From assembly GCF_988243305.1 (NCBI RefSeq), contig NZ_OZ547136.1: a DNA stretch of 64,000 nucleotides; one strand, written 5' to 3'. This document shows, one piece after another, positions 4,810 to 20,960 of this stretch (position 1 is its first letter; every line of letters begins with the position of its first letter). The notes beneath the pieces are model-generated. The model was given only the letters and a program-made list of their open reading frames with translations, did no database searches and had not been told where the DNA came from. The position numbers and the translations under genes were made by a program.

Positions 4810-5029
4810 CAATAATGCCGGAGGTTAATGTTAATGAATCACTGGCGTAATTAACTGGATATCCATTTGTTTGCTATGAATAGTAATTAAAGTTGGTACA
4901 ACTATTTATATGATTGATGTAATTTCGTTTTTTATATGAAATATCAATTTAATATAATCCGAAAATAAAACATCTTTTCGCATGTAGAGAAACATGTCGA
5001 TATGATAGTGCAGTGCAGATCATGTCATC

Positions 5030-5210
5030 AGGGTAGGGCGGTAGCGTATTTAATCAGGGAAAGATTACGCAACGCTGCTTTTTTGTATTGAACGATTCGC
5101 ATTTTATGTTTAAAAATTGCGATATTCCTTATTTCCTGAAGCTGTTTTTATTGCTTATACATGATCAAATACTCCTTACATAATTAAGGAGAACAAAATG
5201 GAACTTAATA
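5030..5210 (+). mobile_element. Remnant of H-repeat (ISAs1-family) element left end, ~150-180 bp, truncated right after the transposase start codon
   Basis: Near-identical to the 5' leader of the H-repeat copies at 10255-10440 and 14945-15095 (cagggaaagat...ttatgtttaaaaattg...gatcaaatactccttacataattaaggagaaca-ATG-GAACTTAA), then diverges. Confidence 0.6.
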
Positions 5211-5348
5211 CACGCCAACAATTTGTATTACTTAAATAGACCAGTGAAGGTACGCATCAGAACATCCGGTGAAGTGATTAATATTTCGTTGAATATTTCT
5301 CCCGATTTTTGAAACCTGCTGCTGTAGAAATTCTGAACAGGAGGAATT

Positions 5349-5633
5349 ATGCCTTTAGCAGCCAAACTCACCGACAAAGGCACCCAGCACGACGGTTATT
5401 ACGAGACCGTCATCACCGCCGGGTCATCCACCGTCTTTATCGATGGTCTTCCCGCAGCCCGTCAGGGAGATCCGCTGACGCCGCATGCTAAACCGAAGCA
5501 TCCCCCTCATCCCCGTAAAATCGCCAGAGGTTCTTCAACCGTCTTTATTGACGGCCTGCCCGCCGCCAGAAGCGGTGATGCTGTTGACTGCGGCGGCGTG
5601 GTTATTGGTGGCGGTACGGTAAATATAGGCTGA
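5349..5633 (+). CDS. PAAR-domain protein (T6SS spike tip)
   Basis: 94 aa; AGGAGG RBS 6-11 nt upstream; repeated GSSTVFIDGLPAAR(Q/S)GD motifs typical of PAAR; immediately upstream of vgrG. Confidence 0.75.
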   Translation: MPLAAKLTDKGTQHDGYYETVITAGSSTVFIDGLPAARQGDPLTPHAKPKHPPHPRKIARGSSTVFIDGLPAARSGDAVDCGGVVIGGGTVNIG

Positions 5634-5651
5634 TATGTCTGAGAGGTATTT

Positions 5652-7616
5652 ATGTCCTTAAAAGGTCTTCGCTTTACGCTGGAGGTTGACGGCCAGGAGC
5701 CGGACACCTTTGCAGTGGTGAATTTCAGGTTAATCCAGAACCAGTCATATCCGTTTGTGATGAGTGTGGATGTTGCCAGCGACTCTTTTATGCAGACGGC
5801 GGAGATGCTGCTGGAGAAGAAGGCGACACTGACCATCTGGCAGGGCGCAGTGGCGCAGCGTTATGTCACCGGCGTGGTGGCGGGTTTTGGCATGCAGGAG
5901 AATAACGGCTGGCAGATGCGTTATCACCTGCGTATTGAGCCGCCGTTATGGCGGTGCGGGCTGCGGCAGAACTTTCGTATCTTCCAGCAGCAGGATATCC
6001 GGACGATATCGGCCACGTTACTGAACGAGAACGGCGTCACGGAGTGGACGCCGCTGTTTTATGAGGACCATCCGGCGCGGGAGTTCTGTGTCCAGTACGG
6101 AGAGAGCGACCTGGCGTTTCTGTCCCGGCTGTGGGCGGAGGAGGGAATTTTCTTCTTTGAGCGGTTTGCGGCGGACAGTCCGGAGCAGAAGCTGACGCTG
6201 TGCGACGATGTGGCGGGGCTGTCACAGGCGGGGGAGTTTCCGTTTAACCCGGACACATCGGCAGGAGCGGAGACGGAGTGTGTCAGTATGTTCCGTTATG
6301 AGGCGCATGTCCGCCCGTCATCGGTGCAGAGCCAGGATTACACGTTTAAGGTGCCGGACTGGCCGGGGATGTATGAGCAGCAGGGTGAGAACCTGAACGG
6401 ACAGCTGGCGCAGTATGAGATATTTGATTATCCGGGAAGGTACAAGGATGAACAGCACGGCAAGGATTTCACGCTGTACCGGATGGAGAGCCTGCGCAGT
6501 GATGCGGAAAAGGCCACAGGGCAGAGTAATTCACCGAAGCTGTGGCCGGGAACGCGGTTTACGCTGACGGGGCATCCGCAGAAGATGCTGAACCGTGAAT
6601 GGCAGGTGGTACAGAGCATACTGTCAGGAAGCCAGCCGCAGGCGCTGCACGGCAGCCAGGGGAGAGGAACCACGCTGGGCAATCAGTTAGAGGTGATACC
6701 GGCGGACCGGACGTGGCGTCCACGGCTGCAAAGCAAACCGAAGGTGGACGGGCCACAGAGCGCCATTGTCACCGGTCCTGCGGGAGAGGAAATCTTCTGC
6801 GACGAACACGGACGTGTGCGAGTGCAGTTTCACTGGGACAGGTATAACCCGGCAACGGAGGCGAGTTCGTGCTGGGTGAGGGTGTCACAGGCGTGGGCGG
6901 GGCCGGGGTTCGGTAACCTGGCGATACCGCGGGTGGGCCAGGAGGTGATTGTTGATTTCCTGAACGGCGACCCGGACCAGCCGATAATCATGGGACGGAC
7001 ATACCATGAGGACAACCGTTCACCGGGGAGTCTGCCGGGGACGAAGACGCAGATGACGATACGGTCGAAGACCTATAAAGGTAGCGGATTTAACGAGCTG
7101 CGGTTTGAAGACGCCACCAGTAATGAGCAGGTGTATATCCATGCGCAGAAGAACATGGATACGGAGGTGCTCAACGACCGGACAACGGATGTGAAACATG
7201 ACCATACGGAAACCATCGGTAACAACCAGAAGATAACGGTGGTGAAGGGCCAGACGGTGAATGTGGGGAGCAAAAAGGAAGGTGGTCATGACCAGAAAGT
7301 GACAGTGGCGAATGACCAGACCATTACGGTACAAAACGATCAGCGGCTGGATGTTACCCACGATCGTCACAAGGATGTAGGGAACGATCAAATCAGTAAG
7401 ATAATAGGAAAAGATACCGAAGAAGTCGTGAAATCCCAGGATATTAAAGTTGGAGAAGATTACAGCCTGACAGTTACCAACAGCCTCACCATTAAAGTCG
7501 GTGAATGCTTACTGAAAATGAATAAGGACGGTACTATCATTCTCAATGGTAAAAGTATCCAGATTGAAGGAAAAGATAAAATCAATATTTTCGGCGCAGA
7601 TATTGATCTGGATTAA
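5652..7616 (+). CDS. vgrG: T6SS spike protein VgrG with divergent C-terminal tail
   Basis: 654 aa; canonical VgrG N-terminus (GLRFTLEVDG...PPLWRCGLRQNFRIFQ) and gp27/gp5-like body; last ~90 aa and underlying DNA (from ~7380) AT-rich and unlike the canonical VgrG C-terminus preserved at 11572-11916. Confidence 0.9.
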   Translation: MSLKGLRFTLEVDGQEPDTFAVVNFRLIQNQSYPFVMSVDVASDSFMQTAEMLLEKKATLTIWQGAVAQRYVTGVVAGFGMQENNGWQMRYHLRIEPPLWRCGLRQNFRIFQQQDIRTISATLLNENGVTEWTPLFYEDHPAREFCVQYGESDLAFLSRLWAEEGIFFFERFAADSPEQKLTLCDDVAGLSQAGEFPFNPDTSAGAETECVSMFRYEAHVRPSSVQSQDYTFKVPDWPGMYEQQGENLNGQLAQYEIFDYPGRYKDEQHGKDFTLYRMESLRSDAEKATGQSNSPKLWPGTRFTLTGHPQKMLNREWQVVQSILSGSQPQALHGSQGRGTTLGNQLEVIPADRTWRPRLQSKPKVDGPQSAIVTGPAGEEIFCDEHGRVRVQFHWDRYNPATEASSCWVRVSQAWAGPGFGNLAIPRVGQEVIVDFLNGDPDQPIIMGRTYHEDNRSPGSLPGTKTQMTIRSKTYKGSGFNELRFEDATSNEQVYIHAQKNMDTEVLNDRTTDVKHDHTETIGNNQKITVVKGQTVNVGSKKEGGHDQKVTVANDQTITVQNDQRLDVTHDRHKDVGNDQISKIIGKDTEEVVKSQDIKVGEDYSLTVTNSLTIKVGECLLKMNKDGTIILNGKSIQIEGKDKINIFGADIDLD

Positions 7617-7631
7617 TCTGGAGAAATTAAC

Positions 7632-8573
7632 ATGAATATTGAAAATGAAACTGGTTTTCCTCACTTTCAGTTCGAAAAAGTGGGATATTATGGTGAGTTA
7701 TTCACAGTAGTGGTAGTTAATCAGACATTTGATTTTTCATATAGCGGCGGTCTCTGTCTGATTGCGGATGAGCAGCGACTGCCACTGATGACCGACTCCT
7801 GGTACGGCGAACCGGAAAGCAGCAGTCTTAAAACAGCAACCGATTTGGTTTGCAGAAAAGTCAGGGCAGATGTTTTATTAAATGGACACGCATGGCATGC
7901 CACCGGGGAAACCACTCGATGGCAGGCCAGTTTACAGGTGGGTAATCTTCAGCGCCAATTTGATATATGTGGCCCTTGCCAATGGCAATATATATCTAAC
8001 CGCTGGCAACTTAGCGAACCTGAATTAACTGATCGGGTACTGTTACGCCATGAACTGGCGTCAGCCAGTGAATTTAATCCTGTAGGCATTGTTATTCCCT
8101 CCCTGATAACGCTTGGCGATAAATCGCCCTGTCCAGCTCCACAGTTATCTGCCTCACCAGGAGCTATTTGCCGTAGCTGGCCTTCACGATTGCGCTATGC
8201 CAGAGGTTTTACAGAACAGTGGCAAAAGACTGTTCAACCTTTTTATCCAGATGAATTCGATTTTGCATTCATGAATTATTCTCCACCAGAACAACAATAC
8301 GATGGTTATTTAATTGGCAATGAAAAAATTATATTGAACGGCCTGTTACCTTCTAAAATGGAACAAACTTGTTTCCTTCCAGATATTAGACTATTGGCGT
8401 ATTTGTTTTACCGCTCTGATAAAAACGTAGAACTGCGCCCATTGTTGGCTGACACACTGACCATCCACACAGACGATGAGCAACTAACACTACTCTGGCG
8501 CTTAACGCTCCCCGTGGATTCTCTTCCACAACGTATTGTTTTGACGACGGAGCAGAGGGGACCTCATGGCTGA
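7632..8573 (+). CDS. DUF2169-family T6SS adaptor protein
   Basis: 313 aa; N-terminus MNIENETGFPHF...FTVVVVNQTFDF fits the DUF2169 signature; 15 nt after vgrG stop and overlaps the next gene by 8 nt. Confidence 0.75.
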   Translation: MNIENETGFPHFQFEKVGYYGELFTVVVVNQTFDFSYSGGLCLIADEQRLPLMTDSWYGEPESSSLKTATDLVCRKVRADVLLNGHAWHATGETTRWQASLQVGNLQRQFDICGPCQWQYISNRWQLSEPELTDRVLLRHELASASEFNPVGIVIPSLITLGDKSPCPAPQLSASPGAICRSWPSRLRYARGFTEQWQKTVQPFYPDEFDFAFMNYSPPEQQYDGYLIGNEKIILNGLLPSKMEQTCFLPDIRLLAYLFYRSDKNVELRPLLADTLTIHTDDEQLTLLWRLTLPVDSLPQRIVLTTEQRGPHG

Positions 8574-9699
8574 AAATCATATTGGTTGTCGTGAATCGAA
8601 GTACGTTGCGATATGTATTGCGCCTGATGTCTGCAAGGTTGGTGATGCGATAGTGCCGTTTGACAGCTTTCAGAACCTGACACATGAGAAAATTTATATC
8701 AGCAATGTCAGGGCACGGGGCAATCCAATACTGACCGTGGACTGTATTATTGCAGGTACACGAAGTAATGCCGGGAAAGGTGTCAGTTCTGGCACCAGTC
8801 TGGGCAGCGGTGACTGCCGGATACTGACAGGCGTGGATCATATAAAGTGCAAGGGAAAGCCGGTAGCCAGGAATCTTTCGCTGGTTGCCATGAATAATGA
8901 TAATACTGTTGGAAAACTGTATACCCAGACAAACCCGCCAAATCAGATAATACCTGTTAAAGAATCATCGCTTTGGGCCAAGTATCTGGAACTGCAAATA
9001 CAACAGCAAGAGTTTGAGCTTGAGTCCAAAAAGCAAGAAGCAGATGCAATGATAGGATTAGGCAAGGCATTTATTAATGGCTGGTATATGTTGGGTGCAT
9101 TGATTGCCAAAGGTCAGATGCAAAATGACATTGCCCAAATGGAAAGTAATATTGCTCTGGCGAGAGGGTTGGGGATGGATACCCAAATTATGGAGCGGGC
9201 GAATGAGACCAACAGGGAGGTAATGGAAACTATTGATCCTAGAGAGCCATTGTTGAAACCTGCCAATGAAACCCAAGCAATGGCGATGGAGGTTGAGCCA
9301 TGGCTGGAACTTATGACCGGGGTTGGAGCACTGGTGAAAGGTTTGGTCAAGTTTTCAGCGAAGTTTGCAATAAAATCGGTTGGCAGAATGGGGAGGAGCG
9401 GTGCTAAAATTGTGCTGGATGCAAATGGATTGCCTATTCCTGTTCCTCCAAGCGTTGGCGCTGCGGGAAGAGTTCCGAGAGTATTACAAACTGGAGGTAA
9501 TACTCTTGAGGCAAGAACTGCCAGGGAGTTAAATGAATTTTTTGGTAAAAATATTAACAGGAGAGAATGGGGGAAAGCTTTAGAAAAGTTGAAAAAAGAT
9601 TTACGCTTACGAGGTGATCACCATGGTCGAATACTTGATAATGGTGATTATATTGATGACTCAGGAAATATTTTAGGAAACATAGAAGATTATTTATGA
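8566..9699 (+). CDS. DUF4150 (PAAR-like) N-terminal domain fused to unclassified C-terminal toxin domain; predicted T6SS effector
   Basis: 377 aa; N-terminal ~125 aa with PDVCK motif typical of PAAR-like DUF4150; C-terminal ~250 aa not recognisable by eye (ends ...RGDHHGRILDNGDYIDDSGNILGNIEDYL); start overlaps DUF2169 stop (ATGGCTGA). Confidence 0.7.
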   Translation: MAENHIGCRESKYVAICIAPDVCKVGDAIVPFDSFQNLTHEKIYISNVRARGNPILTVDCIIAGTRSNAGKGVSSGTSLGSGDCRILTGVDHIKCKGKPVARNLSLVAMNNDNTVGKLYTQTNPPNQIIPVKESSLWAKYLELQIQQQEFELESKKQEADAMIGLGKAFINGWYMLGALIAKGQMQNDIAQMESNIALARGLGMDTQIMERANETNREVMETIDPREPLLKPANETQAMAMEVEPWLELMTGVGALVKGLVKFSAKFAIKSVGRMGRSGAKIVLDANGLPIPVPPSVGAAGRVPRVLQTGGNTLEARTARELNEFFGKNINRREWGKALEKLKKDLRLRGDHHGRILDNGDYIDDSGNILGNIEDYL

Positions 9700-10175
9700 T
9701 TAAGAATATACAATCAAGGCTTACCCCGATATCTCATGAATATCCAAGTTGTGATGAGTGCTATGCTAGCCTCTTGATTTACACAGGTAATACTCACCCT
9801 AATGAAATAAGTATTCACTTAGAACTTGAGCCAACATCAATTAATATAAAAGGAGATGAAATTATTACTCTATCGGGAAAGAAAAGATATGCAAAAAATT
9901 CATATTGGATGCTCTCGTCAGAAAATCTAGTGAACTCGAAAGATATTCGAGAACATCTGGATTGGCTACTTCACAAACTTGGACCTAAATCATCAAATAT
10001 TGCAAAATTGCAAGCATTAGAAAATATTTCAATGGGTATTGACTGTACCTGGAGATCATTGAATTGGCACGGTGGGCCAACTTTATGGCCTGAGCAGATG
10101 AAAATAATGGCTAATCTTGGATTGGAGTGTTCATTTGATATTTATTTCGTCGGCAATGAAGATGGCAATCTTTAA
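9696..10175 (+). CDS. Candidate cognate immunity protein (cytoplasmic, no signal peptide)
   Basis: 159 aa; start overlaps effector stop (ATGA), suggesting translational coupling; AT-rich; no recognisable family. Confidence 0.5.
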   Translation: MIKNIQSRLTPISHEYPSCDECYASLLIYTGNTHPNEISIHLELEPTSINIKGDEIITLSGKKRYAKNSYWMLSSENLVNSKDIREHLDWLLHKLGPKSSNIAKLQALENISMGIDCTWRSLNWHGGPTLWPEQMKIMANLGLECSFDIYFVGNEDGNL

Positions 10176-10254
10176 TTATTGCTCGCAAATTTTTAATAAA
10201 CAAATAGCACAATAAAATACTCGGTATCTATGGTATATACCTAATAAACAAGGG

Positions 10255-11571
10255 CAGGGAAAGATCATCAGAAGTACACTTTTTGTACCAGGGAAAGATC
10301 ACGTAACGCTGCTTTTTTGTACTAAATAATTCGCATTTTATGTTTAAAAATTGAGATATTCCTCATTACCTGAAGCTGTTTTTTATTGAGTATACATGAT
10401 CAAATACTCCTTACATAATTAAGGAGAACACAATGGAACTTAAAAAATTGATGGAACATATTTCTATTATCCCCGATTACAGACAAGCCTGGAAAGTGGA
10501 GCATAAATTGTCGGATATTCTACTGTTGACTATTTGTGCCGTTATTTCTGGTGCAGAAGGCTGGGAAGATATAGAGGATTTTGGGGAAACACATCTCGAT
10601 TTTTTAAAACAATACGGTTATTTTGAAAATGGTATTCCTGTTCACGATACCATCGCCAGAGTTGTATCCTGTATCAGTCCTGCAAAATTTCACGAGTGCT
10701 TTATTAACTGGATGCGAGATTGCCATACTTCAGATGATAAAGACGTCATCACAATTGATGGAAAAACGCTCCGGCACTCTTATGACAAGAGTCGCCGCAG
10801 GGGAGCGATTCATGTCATTAGTGCGTTCTCAACAATGCACAGCCTGGTCATCGGACAGATCAAGACGGATGAGAAATCCAATGAGATTACAGCTATCCCA
10901 GAACTTCTTAACATGCTGGATATTAAAGGAAAAATCATCACAACTGATGCGATGGGTTGCCAGAAAGATATTGCAGAGAAGATACAAAAACAGGGAGGTG
11001 ATTATTTATTCGCTGTAAAAGGAAACCAGGGGCGGCTAAATAAAGCCTTCGAGGAAAAATTTCCGCTGAAAGAATTAAATAATCCAGAGCATGACAGTTA
11101 CGCAATTAGTGAAAAGAGTCACGGCAGAGAAGAAATCCGTCTTCACATTGTTTGCGATGTCCCTGATGAACTTATTGATTTCACGTTTGAATGGAAAGGT
11201 CTGAAGAAATTATGCGTGACAGTCTCCTTTCGGTCAATAATAGCAGAACAAAAGAAAGAGCCAGAAATGACGGTCAGATATTATATCAGTTCTGCTGATT
11301 TAACCGCAGAGAAGTTCGCCACAGCAATCCGAAACCACTGGCACGTGGAGAATAAGCTGCACTGGCGTCTGGACGTGGTAATGAATGAAGACGACTGCAA
11401 AATAAGAAGAGGAAATGCCGCAGAATTATTTTCAGGGATACGGCACATCGCTATTAATATTTTAACGAATGATAAGGTATTCAAGGCAGGGTTAAGATGT
11501 AAGATGCGAAAAGCAGCCATGGACAGAAACTACCTGGCGTCAGTCCTTGCTGGGAGCGGGCTTTCGTAATC
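10255..11571 (+). mobile_element. Intact H-repeat (ISAs1-family) element
   Basis: Left-end leader shared with two other copies; contains full 378 aa transposase ORF; right end abuts vgrG fragment. Confidence 0.8.
10433..11569 (+). CDS. H repeat-associated (ISAs1-family) transposase
   Basis: 378 aa [55 protein letters not shown]..., the conserved H-rpt ORF found with Rhs elements. Confidence 0.85.
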
Positions 11572-11916
11572 TTGCCCTGGCAGGAGCATAAGACGACGGG
11601 GAACCATGTCAGCCTGGTGGAGGGAAAGCACAGTCTGGAGGTGAAAGGCGATCTGGCGAGGAAGGTGAGTGGCACGCTGGGGATAAAGGTGGACGGGGAT
11701 ATCGTGCTGGAGAGCTGCAGCCGGATAAGCCTGAAGGTGGGCGGTTCGTTTATCGTTATTCAGTCGGGCGGTGTGGATATAGTGGGGCCGAAGATAAATC
11801 TTAATGGTGGGGGGAGTCCGGGGACACCGGTACCGACACTGCAACCCACTGTCCTGAACACTTTAGTCACTAATGATACGGATAGTAATACTGATGATGA
11901 TATCGGTAATGATTAG
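11572..11916 (+). pseudogene. vgrG: vgrG 3' fragment (canonical VgrG C-terminal ~110 aa), orphaned by H-repeat insertion or recombination
   Basis: Translation ...SRISLKVGGSFIVIQSGGVDIVGPKINLNGGGSPGTPVP matches canonical VgrG C-terminus; ORF-track start is a TTG immediately after transposase stop, so no genuine start. Confidence 0.7.
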
Positions 11917-12093
11917 ACCAGAGTGAAGTTCATGTTCTCGTAGCGGGATAATCATTCAGATAAAGATAACGGATGACGGTAGTAATAATAATACAATAAT
12001 ACTGTGATTTTCTGCTTTCTAAGCAGAGATGCTCTGTGAATGAATAATTCATACTCGTTACATGTTTTATAATCTTAATAAGGACTATTGATA

Positions 12094-14166
12094 ATGATAA
12101 TCAGCCCTCCAATATTGCATGCGCATATAGACACTGAAAAAGACTCTGACTGGGTAAACAGAATGATGTCTGTTGATCCAGAGAGAAATTTCCCAATGAA
12201 TAGCGGTCGTTCTTGGCATGGTGGAGTTCATTTGAACGGCAATCTGTCAGAGACTGTTAGGTGTATTGCCGATGGGAAGGTTATTTCAATACGCCAGCCA
12301 GAACCAGCGAAAAATACAGTTCCCCCGTTAAATTATAACGGAGTTACGGATAAAGGCTATGTTCTGATAAAACATGAAACAGAAATCGGTAGTGGAGAAG
12401 AGGGTAAAATCGTCTATTACTCATTATATATGCACCTGAGAAGCATTGACAGTAATGTGCAGCCGGGAAACACGCTATACCGGAAAGAACCGGTTGGTGC
12501 AGCAGGGATGGTGGACGGACAGAACGCCTTTCATTTTCAGATTTTTTGTGATGATGAAAACATTCAGAAAATCACAGGAAGAATATCACCGGAAACAGAC
12601 CTGAATAAAGATGGACGAACTAATGTGGTTTACGGTGATAGTCATTTTTATCTCCCTACCGGAACACCGATTTATGGGGACATGCCGGAAGAAAACTCGC
12701 TTGCGAACAACAGTCCGGTACAAAGAACCAGCGTGCCATTGTATGTCACAATGAGTTTTGATAAAGGCAATTGTACGATGGTGACGCGTCAGCAGCATGA
12801 AGTGCTGAGTGATTCCTATACTGAAGTAGGTTCTCCCTTGATTAATGCTGATGGTAAGGATTATGAATACAATCTCTATTCCTACGCGCTGCAACTCTAT
12901 CCGAAAAGCCCAAGTGCCGGTTATGAGATGCTGCGTTTTGGTCGGGTTGTTAATACAGAATATGAAGAATTAGTCCCGGCGGATGCGCCGCTGTGGAGAA
13001 CAATCAATACGCCACAGGGTAAAGGCGTTGTTAACTTAGGGGCGAGAGATATCAGGGTTTACAGCGACGGTGATTTTCCACACTGGACAGGGTGGAAACT
13101 GGTGAACGATGATGCGGACACCAACAGCCAGTGCAATTCACCAACAATCCTGTGTACAACCCGCAATGACCTAAGTCGGATGATTTGTCATTTTCCGCTA
13201 GAATGGGACAGCGCCACCGTGGAATCACGGTTTGAGTGGCTGAAATCACCCAATGACGTATTGAGTAAGCCGATGACAGAGCCTGACCTGGATTTGCTGA
13301 TAGAACACTGTAAGGCGCTTTGTTTGGTAGAGAATCCGTTACCTGCCAGGCGTGTATGGCATTTTGATCCCAGGCAGTTTATTGCACATTTCAGGAAATG
13401 TGGATGGTTAGGAGAAAATGATATTATAAGTGTGGTAAGACGTTATCAAAATGCTTATCCCATGACATCAGAACTTACAAGACCATTAAGTAAAGACACT
13501 CTAATTGAGCGGATTACTAGCCAAGGACAAAATAGCAGTGGTGAGATGATAAGACCTGCAGGGTTGAAAAATGAACTGTCAAAGTCACTAAGGAAGTACT
13601 TAATTACAACCCCATTGCGGATTGCGCATTATTTCGGTCAGATGGCGAGAGAAACAGGCAGATTTTCGTCTTTTATAGAGAATGGTGATTTGAGTTATTT
13701 TGATATGTATGAGCCAGGAACAGAACAGGGACTTAAGCTTGGAAATAATGTTGTTGGTGATGGTGCAAGATTTAAAGGCAGAGGTACCATACATCTAACT
13801 GGTCGTGAGAATTATAGAAATTATGGAAAGTATAGAAATCCGTCAGATGATGATTTTTTTACTACAGGACCCAATAACCAACTCCCAGTTGAAAATGCCT
13901 ATTTTTCTTGCGATGCCGGGGGATACTTTTGGGCAAGTAAGCAAAAATACATAATGGTAAGCCATCGATTGACACCTAGTGGTAGTTTAGGCGTTAATTA
14001 TTGGGCGGATAAAGGATGTAGTTTGTCACATGCCAGAGAAGTTACACGGCGAATAAACCCAGCAGCAGATGGCTTCGATTTAGTACGTTGGCCAGCATTT
14101 GAGCATTCTTGGTATGTATTGAATGATGAAATAACACCTCCACTTAATTACATAAGGATTGTTTAA
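12094..14166 (+). CDS. Predicted bifunctional peptidoglycan hydrolase effector: N-terminal M23-like peptidase domain, C-terminal GH19/lysozyme-like domain
   Basis: ORF-track start 12088 is TTG; ATG at 12094 has AAGGA RBS ~10 nt upstream (690 aa). N-terminal region aligns by eye to LytM/M23 (HGGVHL...YYSLYMHL...AFHFQIF) with non-canonical metal-ligand positions; C-terminal region carries GH19-like motifs (AHYFGQMARETG...GRGTIHLTGRENY...GGYFWASK). Confidence 0.7.
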   Translation: MIISPPILHAHIDTEKDSDWVNRMMSVDPERNFPMNSGRSWHGGVHLNGNLSETVRCIADGKVISIRQPEPAKNTVPPLNYNGVTDKGYVLIKHETEIGSGEEGKIVYYSLYMHLRSIDSNVQPGNTLYRKEPVGAAGMVDGQNAFHFQIFCDDENIQKITGRISPETDLNKDGRTNVVYGDSHFYLPTGTPIYGDMPEENSLANNSPVQRTSVPLYVTMSFDKGNCTMVTRQQHEVLSDSYTEVGSPLINADGKDYEYNLYSYALQLYPKSPSAGYEMLRFGRVVNTEYEELVPADAPLWRTINTPQGKGVVNLGARDIRVYSDGDFPHWTGWKLVNDDADTNSQCNSPTILCTTRNDLSRMICHFPLEWDSATVESRFEWLKSPNDVLSKPMTEPDLDLLIEHCKALCLVENPLPARRVWHFDPRQFIAHFRKCGWLGENDIISVVRRYQNAYPMTSELTRPLSKDTLIERITSQGQNSSGEMIRPAGLKNELSKSLRKYLITTPLRIAHYFGQMARETGRFSSFIENGDLSYFDMYEPGTEQGLKLGNNVVGDGARFKGRGTIHLTGRENYRNYGKYRNPSDDDFFTTGPNNQLPVENAYFSCDAGGYFWASKQKYIMVSHRLTPSGSLGVNYWADKGCSLSHAREVTRRINPAADGFDLVRWPAFEHSWYVLNDEITPPLNYIRIV

Positions 14167-14170
14167 AACA

Positions 14171-14674
14171 ATGAATTTTAAAAAAACAATAATCACTTCG
14201 GTAGGTTTGATATTTATTTCATTCTCTTTTGTGGCAGAGTGCTCTCAACTCAAAAATTTGAATAATTACTCAGTGATGCTTTGTGGAAAAGTGTCAAGTA
14301 ATATCCTTGATGATATTGGTGGTTATAAAGAAAGAGATAAAAAATCCGAAATGGTAGATTTACTTATATTAATTAGTAATGACGAGCCTATCGGTGTTTC
14401 TGAGACCAAAGTGATTTCTAATGGTAAAATATATTTTAAGGGGGAAAGTACTATGAACTTGGATGCCTCATTCATTATGACAATAAATGGTGGAGTTCAT
14501 ACTGACACTGTCACTTATATATCAAAGAAGAATAAAATTATCGGGGGCTACTTTTATAATAATGAGAGTAAAACTGATAAGCTTAAGGAAGTATATATCT
14601 CAAACACAGGAACTGTATATCATATAAATATTGAAAGTGTCAGCGATGATAAATGTCTTGATAAATTTAAGTAA
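14171..14674 (+). CDS. Candidate periplasmic immunity protein (Sec signal peptide)
   Basis: ORF-track start 14159 is TTG; ATG at 14171 gives MNFKKTIITSVGLIFISFSFVAEC... with hydrophobic signal sequence; 4 nt after effector stop; AT-rich. Confidence 0.5.
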   Translation: MNFKKTIITSVGLIFISFSFVAECSQLKNLNNYSVMLCGKVSSNILDDIGGYKERDKKSEMVDLLILISNDEPIGVSETKVISNGKIYFKGESTMNLDASFIMTINGGVHTDTVTYISKKNKIIGGYFYNNESKTDKLKEVYISNTGTVYHINIESVSDDKCLDKFK

Positions 14675-14944
14675 CGATAAGGCAAGGATGATTGATTGGG
14701 TTTAGTTAAGTTTCGAGAACAAATTTCCGCGGCAGAGAGTATAAATGTAGGGGCAAGAATGCTAAAATCGTGAAGTGCACCACAACTATAATTCCAGTTT
14801 ACTTTGTTTATTTGATTGTAATTTAACCATTAAATGATTAGGTTTTTTAGAAAAGGACGTCTGATGAATGTTTAAATTAATTTTGAATACATTTCAATTA
14901 TTTTGTTGTATGTTGGCAAGGTCAAATAAGACATAATTTAATGG

Positions 14945-15650
14945 CAGGGAAAGATCATCGTAAGTACACTTTTTGTACTAAATAATTTGCATTTTATGTT
15001 TAAAAATTGAGATATTCCTCATCACCTGAAGCTGTTTTTTATTACTTATATATGATCAAATACTCCTTACATAAATAAGGAGAACAAAATGGAACTTAAA
15101 AAATTGATGGAACATATTTCTATTATCCCCGATTACAGACAAGCCTGGAAAGTGGAACATAAATTATCGGATATTCTACTGTTGACTATTTGTGCTGTTA
15201 TTTCTGGTGCAGAAGGATGGGAAGATATAGAGGATTTTGGGGAAACACATCTCGATTTTTTGAAGCAATATTGTGATTTTGATAATGGTATTCCTGTTCA
15301 CGATACCATTGCCAGAGTTGTATCCTGTATCAGTCCTGAAAAATTTCATGAGTGCTTTATTAACTGGATGCTTGACTGCCATTCTTCAGATGATAAAGAC
15401 GTCATTGCAATTGATGGAAAAACGCTCCGGTACTCTTATGACAAGAGTCGTCGCAAGGGAGCGATTCACGTTATTAGTGTGTTCTCAATAATGCACAGTC
15501 AGATTCCTTGGAAGATCAAGACGAATGAAAAAAACAATGAGATTACAGCTGTTTCTGAATTTCTTAACATAATGGGTATTAAAGGAAAAATAATTGCACC
15601 GATCCAATGTGATACCAGAAAGACATCGCTAAGAAGATAGCTATAGACAA
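14945..15650 (+). mobile_element. Truncated H-repeat (ISAs1-family) element, 5' ~700 bp only
   Basis: Same left-end leader as the copy at 10255; transposase ORF frameshifted and truncated (183 aa) relative to the intact copy. Confidence 0.75.
15089..15640 (+). pseudogene. H-repeat transposase, truncated/frameshifted
   Basis: 183 aa, highly similar to residues 1-175 of the intact copy, then diverges and stops. Confidence 0.75.
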
Positions 15651-15713
15651 TTATTACCCTCCGTCAGCCCTTGTTAAGCGAGGAGAGACGTAATCTGTCC
15701 AGTCCCCTAATGC

Positions 15714-16811
15714 TTATAAAGCCCATCGATTTCGCCCACTTTCTTTCGCCCGGTATAACGCAGCGTCGGCATCTGAAATAATTTGTTCAGCCGTTTTTGC
15801 GGGAGCAGAACAGGTAATCCCCTGACTAACCGTAACGAATGCATTAACAGCAGATGCCTGATGTGGGATAGCTGCCAGTTTAAGTTCTTGCTTCACTCTG
15901 GCTGCTACCGTCTTTGCTTCCGGCAATGTTGCATTAAAAAGTATGATGGCAAACTCTTCGCCACCATAACGGACAACAACATCCTCCGACTGGCGAGTTG
16001 AACGCTGTAGAGCGTCGGCAACTTGTATTAGACAACGATCCCCAGCAGGATGCCCGTAAGTGTCGTTGTAACGTTTAAAAAAATCGACATCCAGCATAAT
16101 AAGAGCAAATGACCCGCCGTTATCCATCGCGTCGTGTAAGATACTGTTCATTGCACGTCGGTTTGCTATCCCAGTTAAAGGATCACGATGTGCTAATGCA
16201 TCAAGGCGATTAATTAACTGGTTGTTATAACTGTTTTGTACCCATGCTTCTTCAAACCAACGTAACAAAATGAGTCGCCCACCATATAGCGCCAGTGAAA
16301 AAATACACCATACAACAGCAAAATGAATATTGATCTGTTGATTAAGCATAAGACTCGCTATTGGAGTGGTGAACCATAAGGGAATGACAAATGCGAGCAA
16401 TGATGGGGTATGGAAATAAAGTGCGACAACGCCACTAAGCATTAATAATACACATAGTGGATAAGCAAACTGCAGCGTCCAGTACGCAATAAAGTGATAA
16501 CTACACCATGACCATAGCAGGCTCAGGGCAACTAATAGCACCTGGATAGGTAATGTTTTTTGCCGAGGGATGAGTAGTAAACCACTGCAAATCAGCAGAA
16601 TACCCGTTGCAGATATATCAATAGAATGTATAAGGCTTTTTTCATTTAACCAGGGTGGAGTAAGGTCATTAAACAGAACACGGCGCAGCAAAATTATCAA
16701 TGCAAAACTGACATTGATAAAAGCAAACCATGGCAAACTAATTGTCATGCCGCGGATAACCATATCGCGGCGTGTTTGCCACGAGTGATGCGTTTTTCTT
16801 CTTTCAGCCAT
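15714..16811 (-). CDS. Membrane-anchored diguanylate cyclase (GGDEF domain)
   Basis: 365 aa; N-terminal multi-TM region; C-terminal GGDEF domain with RYGGEEF active-site motif and conserved DVDFFKRYND...GH.AGD pattern; absent from this position in K-12. Confidence 0.85.
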   Translation of the reverse strand: MAERRKTHHSWQTRRDMVIRGMTISLPWFAFINVSFALIILLRRVLFNDLTPPWLNEKSLIHSIDISATGILLICSGLLLIPRQKTLPIQVLLVALSLLWSWCSYHFIAYWTLQFAYPLCVLLMLSGVVALYFHTPSLLAFVIPLWFTTPIASLMLNQQINIHFAVVWCIFSLALYGGRLILLRWFEEAWVQNSYNNQLINRLDALAHRDPLTGIANRRAMNSILHDAMDNGGSFALIMLDVDFFKRYNDTYGHPAGDRCLIQVADALQRSTRQSEDVVVRYGGEEFAIILFNATLPEAKTVAARVKQELKLAAIPHQASAVNAFVTVSQGITCSAPAKTAEQIISDADAALYRAKESGRNRWAL

Positions 16812-16857: not shown

Positions 16858-18834
16858 TTATGGTGTCACTATATTGAACCAAAATTCAAAATTATCCATA
16901 TAACCTAACAGCTCGTTGAGCTTTTCCGCATTGCCGGTAATTTTGACATCACCTTTGTCCGTGGCTTCTTTCAGCGTCTCTTCTTTCAGTACAATTTTGT
17001 TCAATACATCACGAGATAGAGAGATAGTGGCATCAGCCTCCGAAGCCTCTACACCAGCGGTATGATTGAGAACACCATTTTCAAGCTCTACCTTATAGGT
17101 GCCGCCATCTTCACCAAAATCGAAATTCAACACGGCTTTGGCATCTGCCGCTTTCTCACCATTAATATGGACGGCAAGATAATCAAAGAACATTTCTGGC
17201 GTCATTGCACGCACAGTGTCAGGGCTGGCAGTATTTGGTGTTGGTAATTTTTGTACGCCGTTACGCAATTCCTGTGCACCAGTGAGATAGAAATTACGCC
17301 ACGGCCCAGATTCAGCCTGATAGCCTAACTGCTCAAGCGCATCAGCTTCCAGATTTCTCGCTGCCTGGTTGTTTGGATCCGCAAACACCACCTTACTAAC
17401 AACTTGGGCAACCCAGCGGAAATTACCCTGGTCATAATCCTGTTTGGCTTTCTGTAAAATGGCATCAGCACCGCCCATATACTCGACGAATTTTTTTGCG
17501 CCTTCTTCTGGCGGTAGTTCATCAAGCGTCGCGGGGTTACCATCAAACCAGCCGAGATAAAGCACGTAAGTTGCTTTCACGTCATGACTTACCGAACCGT
17601 AATAGCCGCGATTCGCCCAGGTGTTAGCCAGTGAAGAGGGCAGTTTAAAGTTTGCGGCAATTTCATCACGGGTCATCCCTTGATTAGCCATGCGCAGAGT
17701 TTGATCATTGATGTAACGATACAAATCACGCTGGCTTTTAAGCAGTTTGACCACGTTATCGTTGCCCCAGGTTGGCCAGTGATGTTGAGCGAGAATAATC
17801 TCGGCTTTATCACCCCACAAATTGAGAGCTTCATTAATATATTTTGACCACGGCAGCGGTTGGCGAATTTTAGCCCCACGCAGCGAATAGGTGTTATGAA
17901 GGGTGTGCGTGACATCTTCAGCGGTTTCGATCAGTTTCTTTTCTTCAATAAACCACAGCATTTCAGAAGGCGCTTCAGAACCTGGCGCCATCAGGAAATC
18001 ATAAGTCAACCCGTCAATAGTTTCTTTTTGTCCGGTTTTGGTGATGTAGTTAGTAGGAGCAATCAACGTGACTGTTCCTGCTGAAGTAGTCGTTCCCAGT
18101 CCAGCCCCCACCTGGCCTTTAACATCAGGTTTCAATAAGTTGCCATACATATAACTGGCTCGTCGGCTCATCACATTGCCAGCCATAATATTTTCGGAAA
18201 CGGCTTCCTCCAAAAATCCGGCTGGCGCATAGATTTTAACTTTGCCTGATTTAACGTCAGCTTCATCAATTACGCCACGAACACCACCGTAGTGATCGAC
18301 ATGACTGTGTGTATAGATAACCGCCACTACCGGTTTTTTGCCGCGATTTTTGTAATAGAGATCCATACCCACTTTGGCTGTTTCTGCTGAAACAAGGGGA
18401 TCAACGACGGTAATACCCTCTTTGCCTTCAATGATGGTCATATTTGATAGATCGAGATTGCGAATCTGATAGACACCTTCAGTTACTTCGAATAACCCGC
18501 TGATATTTATCAGTTGCGCCTGACGCCATAAACTCGGATTCACCGTATCAGGGGCTTTATCGCCTTCTTTGATAAAAGCGTAATGTTGTGGATCCCAGAT
18601 AACATTCCCTTGTTCGCCCTTAATCACGTCTTGAGGGATAGGGGCAATAAAACCTTTATGGGCATCAGTAAAGTCAGTGTTATCGGCAAACGGCAACTGG
18701 TTGGAGAGTAAATTGTTTGCTTGTTGCGTGGCTGCGGTGGCGTCTTTAGGAGCTTCCGCCGCGAGGAGAGGTAAAGAACTGGTGGTGAATAATCCCGTTA
18801 TTAGCAGACTTTTAACGATATGATTAAGCTGCAT
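16858..18834 (-). CDS. Secreted alkyl/aryl sulfatase, metallo-beta-lactamase fold (YjcS/SdsA1/BDS1-like)
   Basis: 658 aa; signal peptide MQLNHIVKSLLITGLFTTSSLPLLAAEAP; MBL motif THSHVDHYGG; C-terminal SCP2-like dimerisation region typical of the family; not at this locus in K-12. Confidence 0.8.
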   Translation of the reverse strand: MQLNHIVKSLLITGLFTTSSLPLLAAEAPKDATAATQQANNLLSNQLPFADNTDFTDAHKGFIAPIPQDVIKGEQGNVIWDPQHYAFIKEGDKAPDTVNPSLWRQAQLINISGLFEVTEGVYQIRNLDLSNMTIIEGKEGITVVDPLVSAETAKVGMDLYYKNRGKKPVVAVIYTHSHVDHYGGVRGVIDEADVKSGKVKIYAPAGFLEEAVSENIMAGNVMSRRASYMYGNLLKPDVKGQVGAGLGTTTSAGTVTLIAPTNYITKTGQKETIDGLTYDFLMAPGSEAPSEMLWFIEEKKLIETAEDVTHTLHNTYSLRGAKIRQPLPWSKYINEALNLWGDKAEIILAQHHWPTWGNDNVVKLLKSQRDLYRYINDQTLRMANQGMTRDEIAANFKLPSSLANTWANRGYYGSVSHDVKATYVLYLGWFDGNPATLDELPPEEGAKKFVEYMGGADAILQKAKQDYDQGNFRWVAQVVSKVVFADPNNQAARNLEADALEQLGYQAESGPWRNFYLTGAQELRNGVQKLPTPNTASPDTVRAMTPEMFFDYLAVHINGEKAADAKAVLNFDFGEDGGTYKVELENGVLNHTAGVEASEADATISLSRDVLNKIVLKEETLKEATDKGDVKITGNAEKLNELLGYMDNFEFWFNIVTP

Positions 18835-19139
18835 CTTAAGCGTCTCCAGAATGGATTTTTATTGGGGGTAATTACGGATGAAAATTTTTAGTGAGGGCAA
18901 GAATAACTATAATGGGCGTTAACAAATTGGCAAGCCGGGAAATTGATGTTTTCTTAATGGCATGTTGGCGAAGAATATATTCTGCAAGTTAACGTTTTCA
19001 TTGGCGCTTTATTTAAAAGTGTGTAGTACAAATATGTACAATTTCAAGTAGGCATTATTGCCGTAAAAACGCATTACCGGACACACGACATTCACAACGT
19101 GTGTTAATTTTACTGACATCTTTCAAAAGGAGCACAATC

Positions 19140-19367
19140 ATGCCGCACATAGACATTAAATGTTTTCCGCGTGAACTGGACGAACAACAAAAAGCAGCAC
19201 TTGCTGCAGATATTACCGACGTTATTATTCGCCATCTGAACAGTAAAGATAGCTCGATAAGCATTTCTCTACAGCAGATTCAACCAGAATCTTGGCAAGC
19301 TATCTGGGATGCCGAAATCGCGCCCCAAATGGAGGCTTTGATAAAGAAACCCGGTTACAGCATGTAA
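19140..19367 (+). CDS. pptA: 4-oxalocrotonate tautomerase-family protein
   Basis: ORF track starts at upstream in-frame codon; recognised PptA begins [22 protein letters not shown] (75 aa) with catalytic Pro2. Confidence 0.85.
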
Positions 19368-19370
19368 TGC

Positions 19371-19940
19371 TTAACCTGCCGTAACACGCTTGCCGCTGGT
19401 AACAAACGTGCCAGCACCTAAATGATGCAACGTATTGAGTTTGTCATCATCAAACTGCCAGCGGCCTTCGACAAATACTCGTGCGTCTGCCGCTGCAGAT
19501 ACCACTTCGCCAAATAGCGTATCGTATTTTTCTTGCGCGGAAGTTGCAGGTAGCAGGCGACACTCCATCCACGCCAGACATTTTTCCTCGACCAGCGGCA
19601 AACCAAGCACCGGGCCTCTCACTACCGGAATGCCGTAGCAATTAAATTTATCTTCTTCACGACCCGACACACTTCCCACCGCCCACGTCCAGTTAGTTGC
19701 TGCAACGCCCGGGATAACGATGCCAAACTTACCATTACGTTCAATCAACTCCCTGGTCCATGTCGATTTATCTACCACAATCGCCACGCGTGGCGGTTCA
19801 AACTCCACCGGCATTGACCAGGCTGCTGCCATAATGTTACGCCGCTGGGATTGCTCATCGAAACTGGTGATCATGACAGTTGGGCCATGATTTAACAGAC
19901 GGCTGGCATGGTGTAATTCGACGGGAATGAATTGGCTCAC
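19371..19940 (-). CDS. yddH: Flavin reductase-like protein
   Basis: 189 aa; GTG start; flavin reductase-like fold pattern; position as in K-12. Confidence 0.8.
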   Translation of the reverse strand: MSQFIPVELHHASRLLNHGPTVMITSFDEQSQRRNIMAAAWSMPVEFEPPRVAIVVDKSTWTRELIERNGKFGIVIPGVAATNWTWAVGSVSGREEDKFNCYGIPVVRGPVLGLPLVEEKCLAWMECRLLPATSAQEKYDTLFGEVVSAAADARVFVEGRWQFDDDKLNTLHHLGAGTFVTSGKRVTAG

Positions 19941-20114
19941 GATATCGCCTCGCTATGAAGGGTGTTTTAAAAGCGTAGCTCGTAACGCAATAAGTAACGA
20001 AATTAACGGGATTGGCGATTTGCGAACGTGATGCATGTCCGCGATCGCACAAAATAGCCAGTGCGGCGTCTATTCCAGGTTATAAGTTGAGAAAACCACT
20101 AAGGGAAACGCCTG

Positions 20115-20960
20115 ATGACGCCCATTCTGAATCACTATTTTGCCCGTATTAACTGGTTGGGAGCTGCTGCGGCCAATATTGATACGCTGCGTGCATTGCA
20201 CCTGAAACACAATTGCACCATTCCGTTTGAAAACCTCGACGTTTTGCTGCCCAGGGAAATACAGCTTGATGATCAATCGCTGGAAGAGAAACTGGTGACA
20301 GCCCGTCGTGGCGGTTACTGTTTTGAGCAGAATGGCGTGTTTGAGCGGGTGTTACGCGAGCTGGGGTTTAACGTTCGCAGCTTGTTAGGGCGCGTAGTGT
20401 TATCAAATCCGCCAGCATTACCGCCGCGCACCCATCGTTTGTTGTTGGTGGAAGTGGAAGGGGAAAAATGGATTGCTGATGTCGGTTTCGGTGGACAGAC
20501 GCTAACCGCGCCGATTCGATTAGTTCCCGAGCTCGTGCAGACCACGCCACACGGAGAGTATCGGTTGTTGCAGGAGGGTGATGATTGGGTGTTGCAGTTT
20601 AATCATCATCAGCACTGGCAGTCGATGTACCGTTTTGATCTCTGCGAGCAGCAACAAAGCGATTATGTAATGGGCAATTTCTGGTCTGCGCACTGGCCGC
20701 AGTCGCATTTTCGCCATCATTTGCTGATGTGCCGCCATTTGCCGGACGGCGGCAAGCTGACACTGACCAATTTTCATTTTACCCATTATGAAGATGGGCA
20801 CGCGGTGGAACAGCGAAATCTACCAGATGTGGCGTCGATATATGCCGTGATGCAGGAACAGTTTGGTCTGGGGGTGGATGATGCGAAACATGGCTTTACT
20901 GTGGATGAGTTAGCGCTGGTGATGGCGGCGTTTGATACGCACCCGGAGGCGGGAAAATAA
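20115..20960 (+). CDS. nhoA: Arylamine N-acetyltransferase
   Basis: 281 aa; NAT family with catalytic Cys motif (RGGYCFEQN); ATG start. Confidence 0.9.
   Translation: MTPILNHYFARINWLGAAAANIDTLRALHLKHNCTIPFENLDVLLPREIQLDDQSLEEKLVTARRGGYCFEQNGVFERVLRELGFNVRSLLGRVVLSNPPALPPRTHRLLLVEVEGEKWIADVGFGGQTLTAPIRLVPELVQTTPHGEYRLLQEGDDWVLQFNHHQHWQSMYRFDLCEQQQSDYVMGNFWSAHWPQSHFRHHLLMCRHLPDGGKLTLTNFHFTHYEDGHAVEQRNLPDVASIYAVMQEQFGLGVDDAKHGFTVDELALVMAAFDTHPEAGK

Follow-up and report, generated by a model that had tools for sequence, protein, structure and literature searches.

A probable relic of a vgrG 3′ end beside an ISEc1/H-repeat element in a T6SS cargo island of Escherichia coli

Introduction

The closest described relatives of the locus reported here are the PAAR-VgrG-effector-immunity cargo modules of the T6SS, as exemplified by VgrG4 and Awe1 of Aeromonas jandaei. 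Experiments have shown that the last 14 residues of A. jandaei VgrG4 are needed to bind and deliver its downstream effector, Awe1 (PMC12135965). The same work describes the WHxxxH motif by which the WHIX effectors, a class of T6SS effectors that target peptidoglycan, are defined (PMC12135965).

Two other systems are relevant for comparison. In Escherichia coli K-12, the RhsE locus, with the gene order rhsE-ydcD-yncI-ydcC, lies between yncG and pptA, which is also the site considered here, and ydcC belongs to an H-repeat. The orphan tips of Rhs and CdiA systems consist of a 3′ gene fragment and a toxin-immunity pair beside a mobile element. Adjacent deletion and gene truncation are general properties of insertion sequences (IS), and gene relics truncated by an IS are common, as are auxiliary T6SS modules in decay. 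To our knowledge, few experimental data exist on the transposition of ISAs1/H-repeat elements, and it has not been demonstrated experimentally. Searches of the literature on ISAs1 or H-repeat elements associated with vgrG or Rhs genes in E. coli yielded no description of the present locus.

We analysed a 64,000-nt stretch of an E. coli genome (contig NZ_OZ547136.1 of assembly GCF_988243305.1; hereafter the window), taking up an earlier note on a short reading frame located immediately behind an H-repeat transposase gene. The note had proposed that this frame represents the 3′ terminus of a vgrG gene to which the downstream effector gene had once been linked. We describe the boundaries of the vgrG-derived sequence, its probable origin and the fate of the module to which it belonged.

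Results

Boundaries and identity of the vgrG remnant

The frame in question (11572-11916, plus strand) comprises 345 nt, begins with a TTG codon and remains open for 114 codons. As described in the earlier note, it directly follows the transposase ORF (10433-11569), with 2 bases between the TAA that closes the latter and the TTG. The note's view that the frame has no genuine start was also borne out, since it contains no in-frame ATG; its sole possible starts are a GTG at 11617 and the TTG, which sits in the inverted repeat of the IS. Alignment with three full-size vgrG genes placed the beginning of the vgrG homology exactly at 11580, which corresponds to codon 596 of the gene, called vgrG2 below. 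The 8 nt before this point (11572-11579), with the TTG among them, do not derive from vgrG but close the right inverted repeat of the IS.

At the other end, the TAG codon at 11914-11916 is a secondary nonsense change, resulting from a single G-to-T substitution that converted GAG to TAG. It is found in the window and in the near-identical strain Z1323HEC0462, all other copies having GAG. The natural vgrG stop codon is located 27 nt further 3′, at 11941-11943, and the frame leading to it adds nine codons encoding ETRVKFMFS, the residues that the nonsense change strips from the product. The vgrG 3′ remnant is the segment 11580-11943 (plus strand), equivalent to codons 596-715 of the 715-aa VgrG2, and it encodes turns of the C-terminal beta-helix, the sequence NLNGGGSPGTP, an acidic linker and the ETRVKFMFS tail. 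The frame had been proposed to mark the old end of vgrG; it is indeed derived from vgrG, and its limits are off by 8 nt on the 5′ side and by 27 nt on the 3′ side. A translational fusion between the transposase and the remnant was ruled out, as their reading frames differ.

In a megablast search, the 345 nt matched 636 of 5426 complete E. coli genomes, with E-values down to 1e-180. Among the best-matching records, the features lying under the match are all Vgr/TssI genes, except in the three genomes that carry the IS-vgrG junction. In 17 genomes, positions 9-345 (or 9-342) of the frame match the inside of a full-size vgrG gene, with 94-96% identity over 337 nt, which is the nucleotide-level similarity to vgrG 3′ ends that the earlier identification implied. 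The beta-helix part is matched in 612 genomes at 80-90% identity, and among the matches listed these cover positions 9-290 only. The last ~55 nt of the frame are specific to this effector module. The proposed resemblance to the C-terminus of canonical VgrG thus holds for the beta-helix part but not for this module-specific end. The encoded protein agrees with residues 596-706 of an intact 715-aa VgrG (WP_224204897.1 of strain ECNB21-M121) at 106 of 111 positions (E 2e-69).

Domain models barely detect the remnant, and its identification consequently relies on homology to full-length genes. With the 114-aa product, Pfam gave sub-threshold matches only (E 0.017 and 0.13), and NCBIfam gave 18.9 bits to one TssI model whose cut-off is 100. 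The models of the gp27-like and gp5-like domains (TIGR03361 and TIGR01646; Phage_GPD and Phage_base_V) match residues 8-519 of both VgrG1, encoded upstream in the window, and intact VgrG2. They miss the remnant because the defining domains of VgrG are all located upstream of the breakpoint. By descent, the remnant belongs to the VgrG/TssI family, its DNA being collinear with the 3′ end of full-length vgrG genes. It does not qualify as a functional VgrG/TssI: it begins at residue 596, is devoid of the gp27-like and gp5-like domains and does not form a complete ORF, having no credible start and an internal nonsense codon at 11914. With residues 1-595 gone, its product would be unable to trimerise into a spike.

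In the near-identical RefSeq locus, PGAP starts a CDS at the GTG codon at 11617 and calls its 99-aa product a 'hypothetical protein'. All three RefSeq carriers of the junction have a PGAP CDS at this position, with products of 99-108 aa named 'hypothetical' or 'cons domain' protein. Two minus-strand ORFs overlap the region (11530-11844 and 11481-11675), and we assume that they are by-products of the vgrG-derived sequence. An Rfam scan of positions 10000-16000 gave no matches.

The ISEc1/H-repeat element and other ISAs1 sequences

The remnant abuts a complete ISEc1/H-repeat element of the ISAs1 family (10289-11579, plus strand, 1291 bp). The ~1.3 kb of the element lie between terminal inverted repeats, CAGGGAAAGATCACG and CAGGGCAAGATTACG, that match at 13 of their first 15 positions. 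Its transposase is full length (378 aa) and of the ISAs1 type, with a score of 414 bits for NF033564 (transpos_ISAs1; NCBIfam, cut-off 70), and PGAP names it 'ISAs1-like element ISEc1 family transposase'. The element is collinear from end to end with the ydcC H-repeat of K-12, with 95.9% identity over 1293 aligned positions.

The locus contains further ISAs1 sequences in the same orientation. A 34-bp left-end relic of an older resident copy (10255-10288, plus strand) abuts the complete IS on its left; window positions 5000-10288 align continuously with strain PS10-3, the alignment extending 34 bp into the resident IS of that strain (5581-5614 of its locus, L002). A 154-bp left-end fragment (5055-5208, plus strand), which extends from the terminal repeat 11 nt into the transposase ORF, is found upstream of the first PAAR-vgrG module and forms a direct repeat of 10289-10443, with 91-92% identity. 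Finally, a second ISAs1 copy (14945-15639, plus strand) has an intact left terminus and is cut after ~695 bp.

The IS copies of PS10-3 (L002 5581-6559 and 12363-13343), A30 and ECNB21-M121, which are all the genomes with an aligned IS, belong to an ISAs1 variant that lacks 312 bp internally, equivalent to window positions 10821-11132. Such copies are annotated either as an intact 274-aa transposase (WP_000420746.1) or as a pseudogene. Several further genomes have an 825-bp ISAs1 CDS annotated at the same position.

After the second ISAs1 copy and before pptA, the minus strand harbours genes for a GGDEF sensor (15714-16811) and an alkyl-sulfatase (16858-18834). Both are present in all three junction-bearing genomes and missing at this position in K-12, PS10-3, A16 and A30.

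The ancestral module

A first, intact module (module 1) spans 5349-10175 on the plus strand. It codes for a PAAR protein (5349-5633; NCBIfam PAAR, 156 bits), VgrG1 (5652-7616; TIGR03361, 606 bits), a DUF2169 protein (7632-8573), a PAAR-like effector (8566-9699) and a DUF4279 protein (9696-10175), the last three being assigned from their ORFs and PGAP names. The PAAR-like effector has 377 aa in the window and is annotated with 333 aa (1002-bp CDS) in Z1323HEC0462; position 9565 is G in the former and T in the latter.

The second module, from which the remnant derives, was found whole or nearly so in other strains. A search with the effector-immunity region retrieved the whole effector module in 19 genomes, namely 17 with a full-size vgrG2, strain A30, in which vgrG2 is truncated differently and without an IS, and Z1323HEC0462. 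The 17 complete genomes provide the contiguous arrangement of fragment, full vgrG and same effector that the earlier note had suggested looking for, and with it support for the former linkage that it had proposed. In these genomes, a vgrG2 gene of 2147-2148 bp is located 147-150 nt upstream of the effector-immunity pair at the yncG-pptA locus. They keep the ancestral order: resident ISAs1, PAAR2, vgrG2 (715 aa), a 150-nt spacer, effector, immunity and ISAs1. Among the genomes inspected, vgrG2 is intact (715 aa) in ECNB21-M121, 32F4, 23CRST031 and JX21CE8, and annotated as frameshifted in six others.

Two arrangements of the locus were observed. In PS10-3, A16, strain 48 and ETEC6335, the genes for PAAR, VgrG1, DUF2169, the PAAR-like effector and DUF4279 are followed by ISAs1, the PAAR2-vgrG2-effector-immunity module, ISAs1 and pptA. 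In ECNB21-M121, 32F4, 23CRST031, JX21CE8, 1504D004 and ES5, the PAAR-vgrG2-effector-immunity module directly adjoins yncG. The native spacer between vgrG and the effector gene persists in the window (11944-12093, plus strand, 150 nt) and is unchanged relative to an intact locus (L006, 7364 to 7515). A promoter scan, which reports consensus matches only, found two sigma-70-like sites in it, at 11973-12000 and 12066-12095.

VgrG1 and the lost VgrG2 are 84% identical, being near-identical to about residue 560-565 and divergent beyond. The remnant therefore essentially represents the module-specific C-terminus. No homology was detectable between the VgrG1 gene and the remnant, and megablast did not detect a second copy of this vgrG 3′ sequence in a related complete genome.

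Origin of the junction

Relative to PS10-3, the left flank of the complete IS ends at L002 5614 and the right flank starts at L002 9001, within vgrG2. The 3386 bp (~3.4 kb) missing between these points comprise the remainder of the older IS, a 212-bp spacer, PAAR2 and 1783 nt of vgrG2, i.e. codons 1-595, which encode the gp27/gp5 spike body. On the left, the complete IS begins 34 bp into the older resident copy; on the right, it ends at codon 596 of vgrG2. The flanks of the IS, …TTTTTGTAC and GCAGGAGCAT…, show no match in the 10 bp compared on each side, and there is no target-site duplication, as expected if insertion was followed by a deletion.

We infer that the deletion was the work of the IS, since the missing DNA is bounded on both sides by intact IS termini and no target-site duplication is present. 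The ISEc1 copy might have generated it directly by intramolecular transposition, as an adjacent deletion; alternatively, insertion of ISEc1 might have been followed by a deletion anchored at its terminus. We found no ancestor with a full-length IS beside an intact PAAR2-vgrG2 pair. Simple insertion of the IS into vgrG was ruled out, as the flanks are contiguous in no relative and the target is not duplicated.

Homologous recombination was also considered. A second ISEc1 copy might have inserted at codon 596 of vgrG2 and recombined with the resident upstream ISAs1, deleting the interval between them. ISAs1 copies and fragments in direct orientation are present throughout the locus, and recombination between such repeats does occur, as shown by strains SC418 and AST215, which lost module 1 between the repeats 5055-5208 and 10289-10443. 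However, recombination between two copies would have left one hybrid IS against the old left flank, whereas a 34-bp relic followed by a complete left end is observed. In addition, it is with the resident copy of PS10-3 that the left part of the window IS shows its lowest similarity (92.0% identity, vs 94.6% to the other copy). The persistence of the older left end as a 34-bp relic thus makes this route unlikely. In contrast, we are confident that 11580-11943 is what an IS-anchored deletion left of the 3′ end of vgrG2, and that it is non-functional.

Distribution and further decay of the island

The IS-vgrG junction is present in only three of the 5426 complete genomes, those of Z1323HEC0462, SC418 and AST215, and the left junction with the 34-bp relic in Z1323HEC0462 alone. 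SC418 and AST215 keep the IS-vgrG junction together with the natural vgrG stop codon. They are devoid of module 1, and their IS begins exactly at the 154-bp fragment of the window (5055-5208), as recombination of this fragment with 10289-10443 would produce. They also lack the effector and immunity genes: the segment 12135-14944 is deleted, from 41 nt into the effector ORF to the position at which the left terminus of the second ISAs1 copy begins (14945). The breakpoints are at 8567/8568 in L008 and 8563/8564 in L009 (window 12134/14945). As this deletion stops exactly at an IS terminus, it represents a second terminus-anchored deletion in the same locus.

The remnant and the intact copies differ mostly at synonymous positions, with a pN/pS of 0.16-0.20. 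The differences all fall within the first 236 nt, where identity is ~93%; beyond this point identity is ~99%, and the last 130 nt are identical save for the nonsense change. As the divergence is mostly synonymous and the G-to-T substitution is the sole disabling change, these data fit a fairly recent truncation. The jump in identity after the first 236 nt suggests that the tail and the effector move together as a block.

The island (window 6557-15922) shows only five differences from that of Z1323HEC0462 in ~9.4 kb, and the flanking core genes differ by 1-5% (e.g. at 18200-20900). This suggests that the eroded island was recently exchanged between lineages, or swept.

Some 136 further genomes, including those of CFT073, Nissle 1917 and ATCC 25922, have lost all but the 3′-terminal ~234 nt of the effector gene and retain part or all of the immunity gene. 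These orphan relics correspond to window positions 13933-14339 or 13933-14699, with 96-97% identity. In the one case inspected, CFT073, the relic (L010 8001-8407) is found at the same locus.

The effector, its immunity gene and the VgrG tail

The cargo effector gene (12094-14166, plus strand) codes for a protein of 690 aa from the PGAP start, which belongs to a family with 861 homologues. The earlier note had called it an M23/GH19 effector. The GH19 part of this designation is supported, as the C-terminal domain is a GH19-like muramidase/chitinase that matches the solved structures of endolysins 9ms7 (E 3.6e-10) and 4ok7; the M23 part depends on a weak Pfam match in the N-terminal region (E 3.2e-4). 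By eye, this region has HxxxH (WHGGVH, 12214-12231) for the HxxxD of M23 proteins and FHF (~12400-12560) for HxH. Judging from its sequence, the M23-like region may be a degenerate, non-catalytic fold rather than a second toxic domain. Only one immunity-like gene is found downstream of the effector gene.

The WHGGVH motif occupies residues 41-46 of the effector, and WHGG[VIQ]H is present in eight of eight homologues from eight genera. The effector, a candidate member of the WHIX class, has three of its features: a WHxxxH motif in its first region, a peptidoglycan-targeting C-terminus and a gene beside vgrG. The accessions, annotation names and genera of the family had no match in the portion of the PMC12135965 dataset that was consulted.

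The presumed immunity gene (14171-14674, plus strand) was identified as an ORF that coincides with a PGAP CDS, and its product has a hydrophobic, signal-like N-terminal segment. Its function is presumed from its position: it is always found 3′ of the effector gene in the loci inspected, and it occurs as an orphan in other genomes.

We determined the genetic context of the effector homologues of other genera, which share 45-69% identity with it. A VgrG gene is located directly upstream in seven of eight genera, counting the intact E. coli loci; this is the case in Buttiauxella, Serratia, Salmonella, Intestinirhabdus, Yersinia and Chromobacterium, but not in the Enterobacter locus. The C-termini of these VgrG proteins are ...VKFMFS in E. 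coli, ...VRFVFS in Buttiauxella, ...LKFLFS in Salmonella, ...AKFSFS in Intestinirhabdus, ...RWLFS in Yersinia and ...RSSFS in Serratia. Chromobacterium, with ...HPFSE, is the sole exception to the ...FS ending. Six genera thus share a conserved ...[KR]F.FS / ...SFS tail, despite having VgrG bodies of two types (loci L006, L012, L021, L022, L023 and L024). In E. coli, the module-specific vgrG 3′ sequence is found directly upstream of the effector gene in 19 of 19 effector-bearing genomes. By analogy with A. jandaei VgrG4, the acidic linker and ...VKFMFS tail of VgrG2 probably serve as a loading peptide for the downstream effector.

The effector is probably stranded, i.e. undeliverable, in the strain of the window, because the spike body is lost and the tail cannot be displayed on a T6SS, and because megablast found no other copy of this vgrG 3′ sequence in a related complete genome. 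The immunity gene could still protect against relatives that have the whole module.

Discussion

The locus resembles the described systems to different degrees. Its closest counterparts are the cargo modules of the A. jandaei VgrG4-Awe1 type: the relatives of the window strain have exactly the PAAR-VgrG-effector-immunity gene order, tail and effector co-occur in every effector-bearing genome, and the ...FS tail is kept across genera. It differs in that just the last 120 codons of the spike gene remain and the module is broken. Moreover, tail loading was established by experiment for VgrG4, whereas for VgrG2 it is proposed from analogy and conservation. The junction also has the hallmarks of IS-mediated adjacent deletions, with an intact IS terminus against a truncated gene, no target duplication and, in relatives, a second deletion that also stops at an IS terminus. 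Nothing about it is unusual in this respect.

The earlier note had likened the position of the H-repeat to that of H-repeats flanking Rhs orphan tips. This comparison is apt for the site and the element, because the K-12 RhsE locus occupies the same site and comprises rhsE and the ydcC H-repeat. Apart from the site, the two elements are alike over all 1291 bp, in their transposase of 378 aa and in their place between toxin modules. The comparison does not extend to the Rhs genes. There is no Rhs core or tip here, the yncG-pptA interval of the near-identical RefSeq locus contains no RHS-repeat protein, annotated or otherwise, and the IS terminus forms a deletion junction in vgrG instead of following an rhs gene. 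The fragment is derived from vgrG and no rhs 3′ fragment is present, which sets it apart from Rhs orphan tips. Two likenesses to Rhs/CdiA orphan tips nevertheless remain, namely the combination of a 3′ gene fragment with a toxin-immunity pair beside a mobile element, and the occurrence elsewhere in E. coli of the effector 3′ tip with its immunity gene as orphans. In contrast with such tips, the fragment comes from the spike gene and not from the toxin gene, it has no full-length partner in the locus, and it shows no sign of maintenance.

These likenesses raise the question of whether the fragment might be a maintained 'orphan tip', a recombination substrate that could be swapped onto a full vgrG to alter its cargo specificity. 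About 280 nt are shared at 80-90% identity with the vgrG genes of ~600 E. coli genomes and are followed by a module-specific tail, effector and immunity genes; the remnant is located at the K-12 RhsE site beside an H-repeat; and the rise in identity from ~93% to ~99% after 236 nt suggests movement of a tail-effector block. However, no homology to the remnant could be detected in the VgrG1 gene of the same locus, nor did megablast reveal another matching vgrG in the related complete genome. The tail is disabled by the nonsense codon in the window, two of the three other carriers have lost the effector, and the junction is rare (3 of 5426 genomes). We regard a maintained tip as very improbable. 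That the frame is a real small gene, whose product would be a free tail peptide binding or chaperoning the effector, is scarcely credible: PGAP predicts a CDS in all three RefSeq carriers, 114 codons are open and pN/pS relative to intact genes is low, but a low ratio is expected from divergence that preceded truncation, the nonsense change is the sole difference among the three carriers, the frame has no ATG, no convincing ribosome-binding site and, in a promoter/terminator scan, no promoter-like site reading outward from the IS end, and the window copy is devoid of the binding tail whereas the copies that keep the tail have no effector.

The vgrG2 relic is thus an ordinary pseudogene scar, of the IS-truncated kind already known, and nothing at the locus is of a new kind; it undergoes ordinary reductive decay. 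As a single feature the remnant carries little weight; its appropriate annotation is that of a vgrG fragment rather than of a 'hypothetical' or 'cons domain' protein.

Three separate rearrangements anchored on ISAs1 sequences are found in this small group of strains. In two cases the breakpoint coincides precisely with an IS terminus: at vgrG codon 596 it is the right end of the complete element, and 41 nt into the effector gene it is the left end of the next copy. The third is the recombination between 154-bp left-end repeats. It is possible, though we put it forward only tentatively, that the ISAs1/H-repeat elements at the yncG-pptA hotspot are currently active and chiefly drive the turnover of T6SS cargo modules in E. 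coli. If so, they would provide natural evidence of activity for this element, and the near-identical island within flanks that diverge by 1-5% would mean that the eroded island itself is being exchanged between lineages. Repeated deletions anchored at IS termini are mildly interesting as possible natural evidence of H-repeat activity.

The rare ...VKFMFS tail, strictly paired with its effector and represented by ...FS endings across genera, offers a testable case of tail loading in the Enterobacterales. The remnant also serves as a marker of the reductive evolution of a T6SS cargo island, from an intact module to loss of the spike and then of the effector, with immunity-only relics elsewhere. 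In the strain of the window, the intact effector gene is predicted to be no longer deliverable, which calls for caution when the T6SS armament of a strain is deduced from its gene content.
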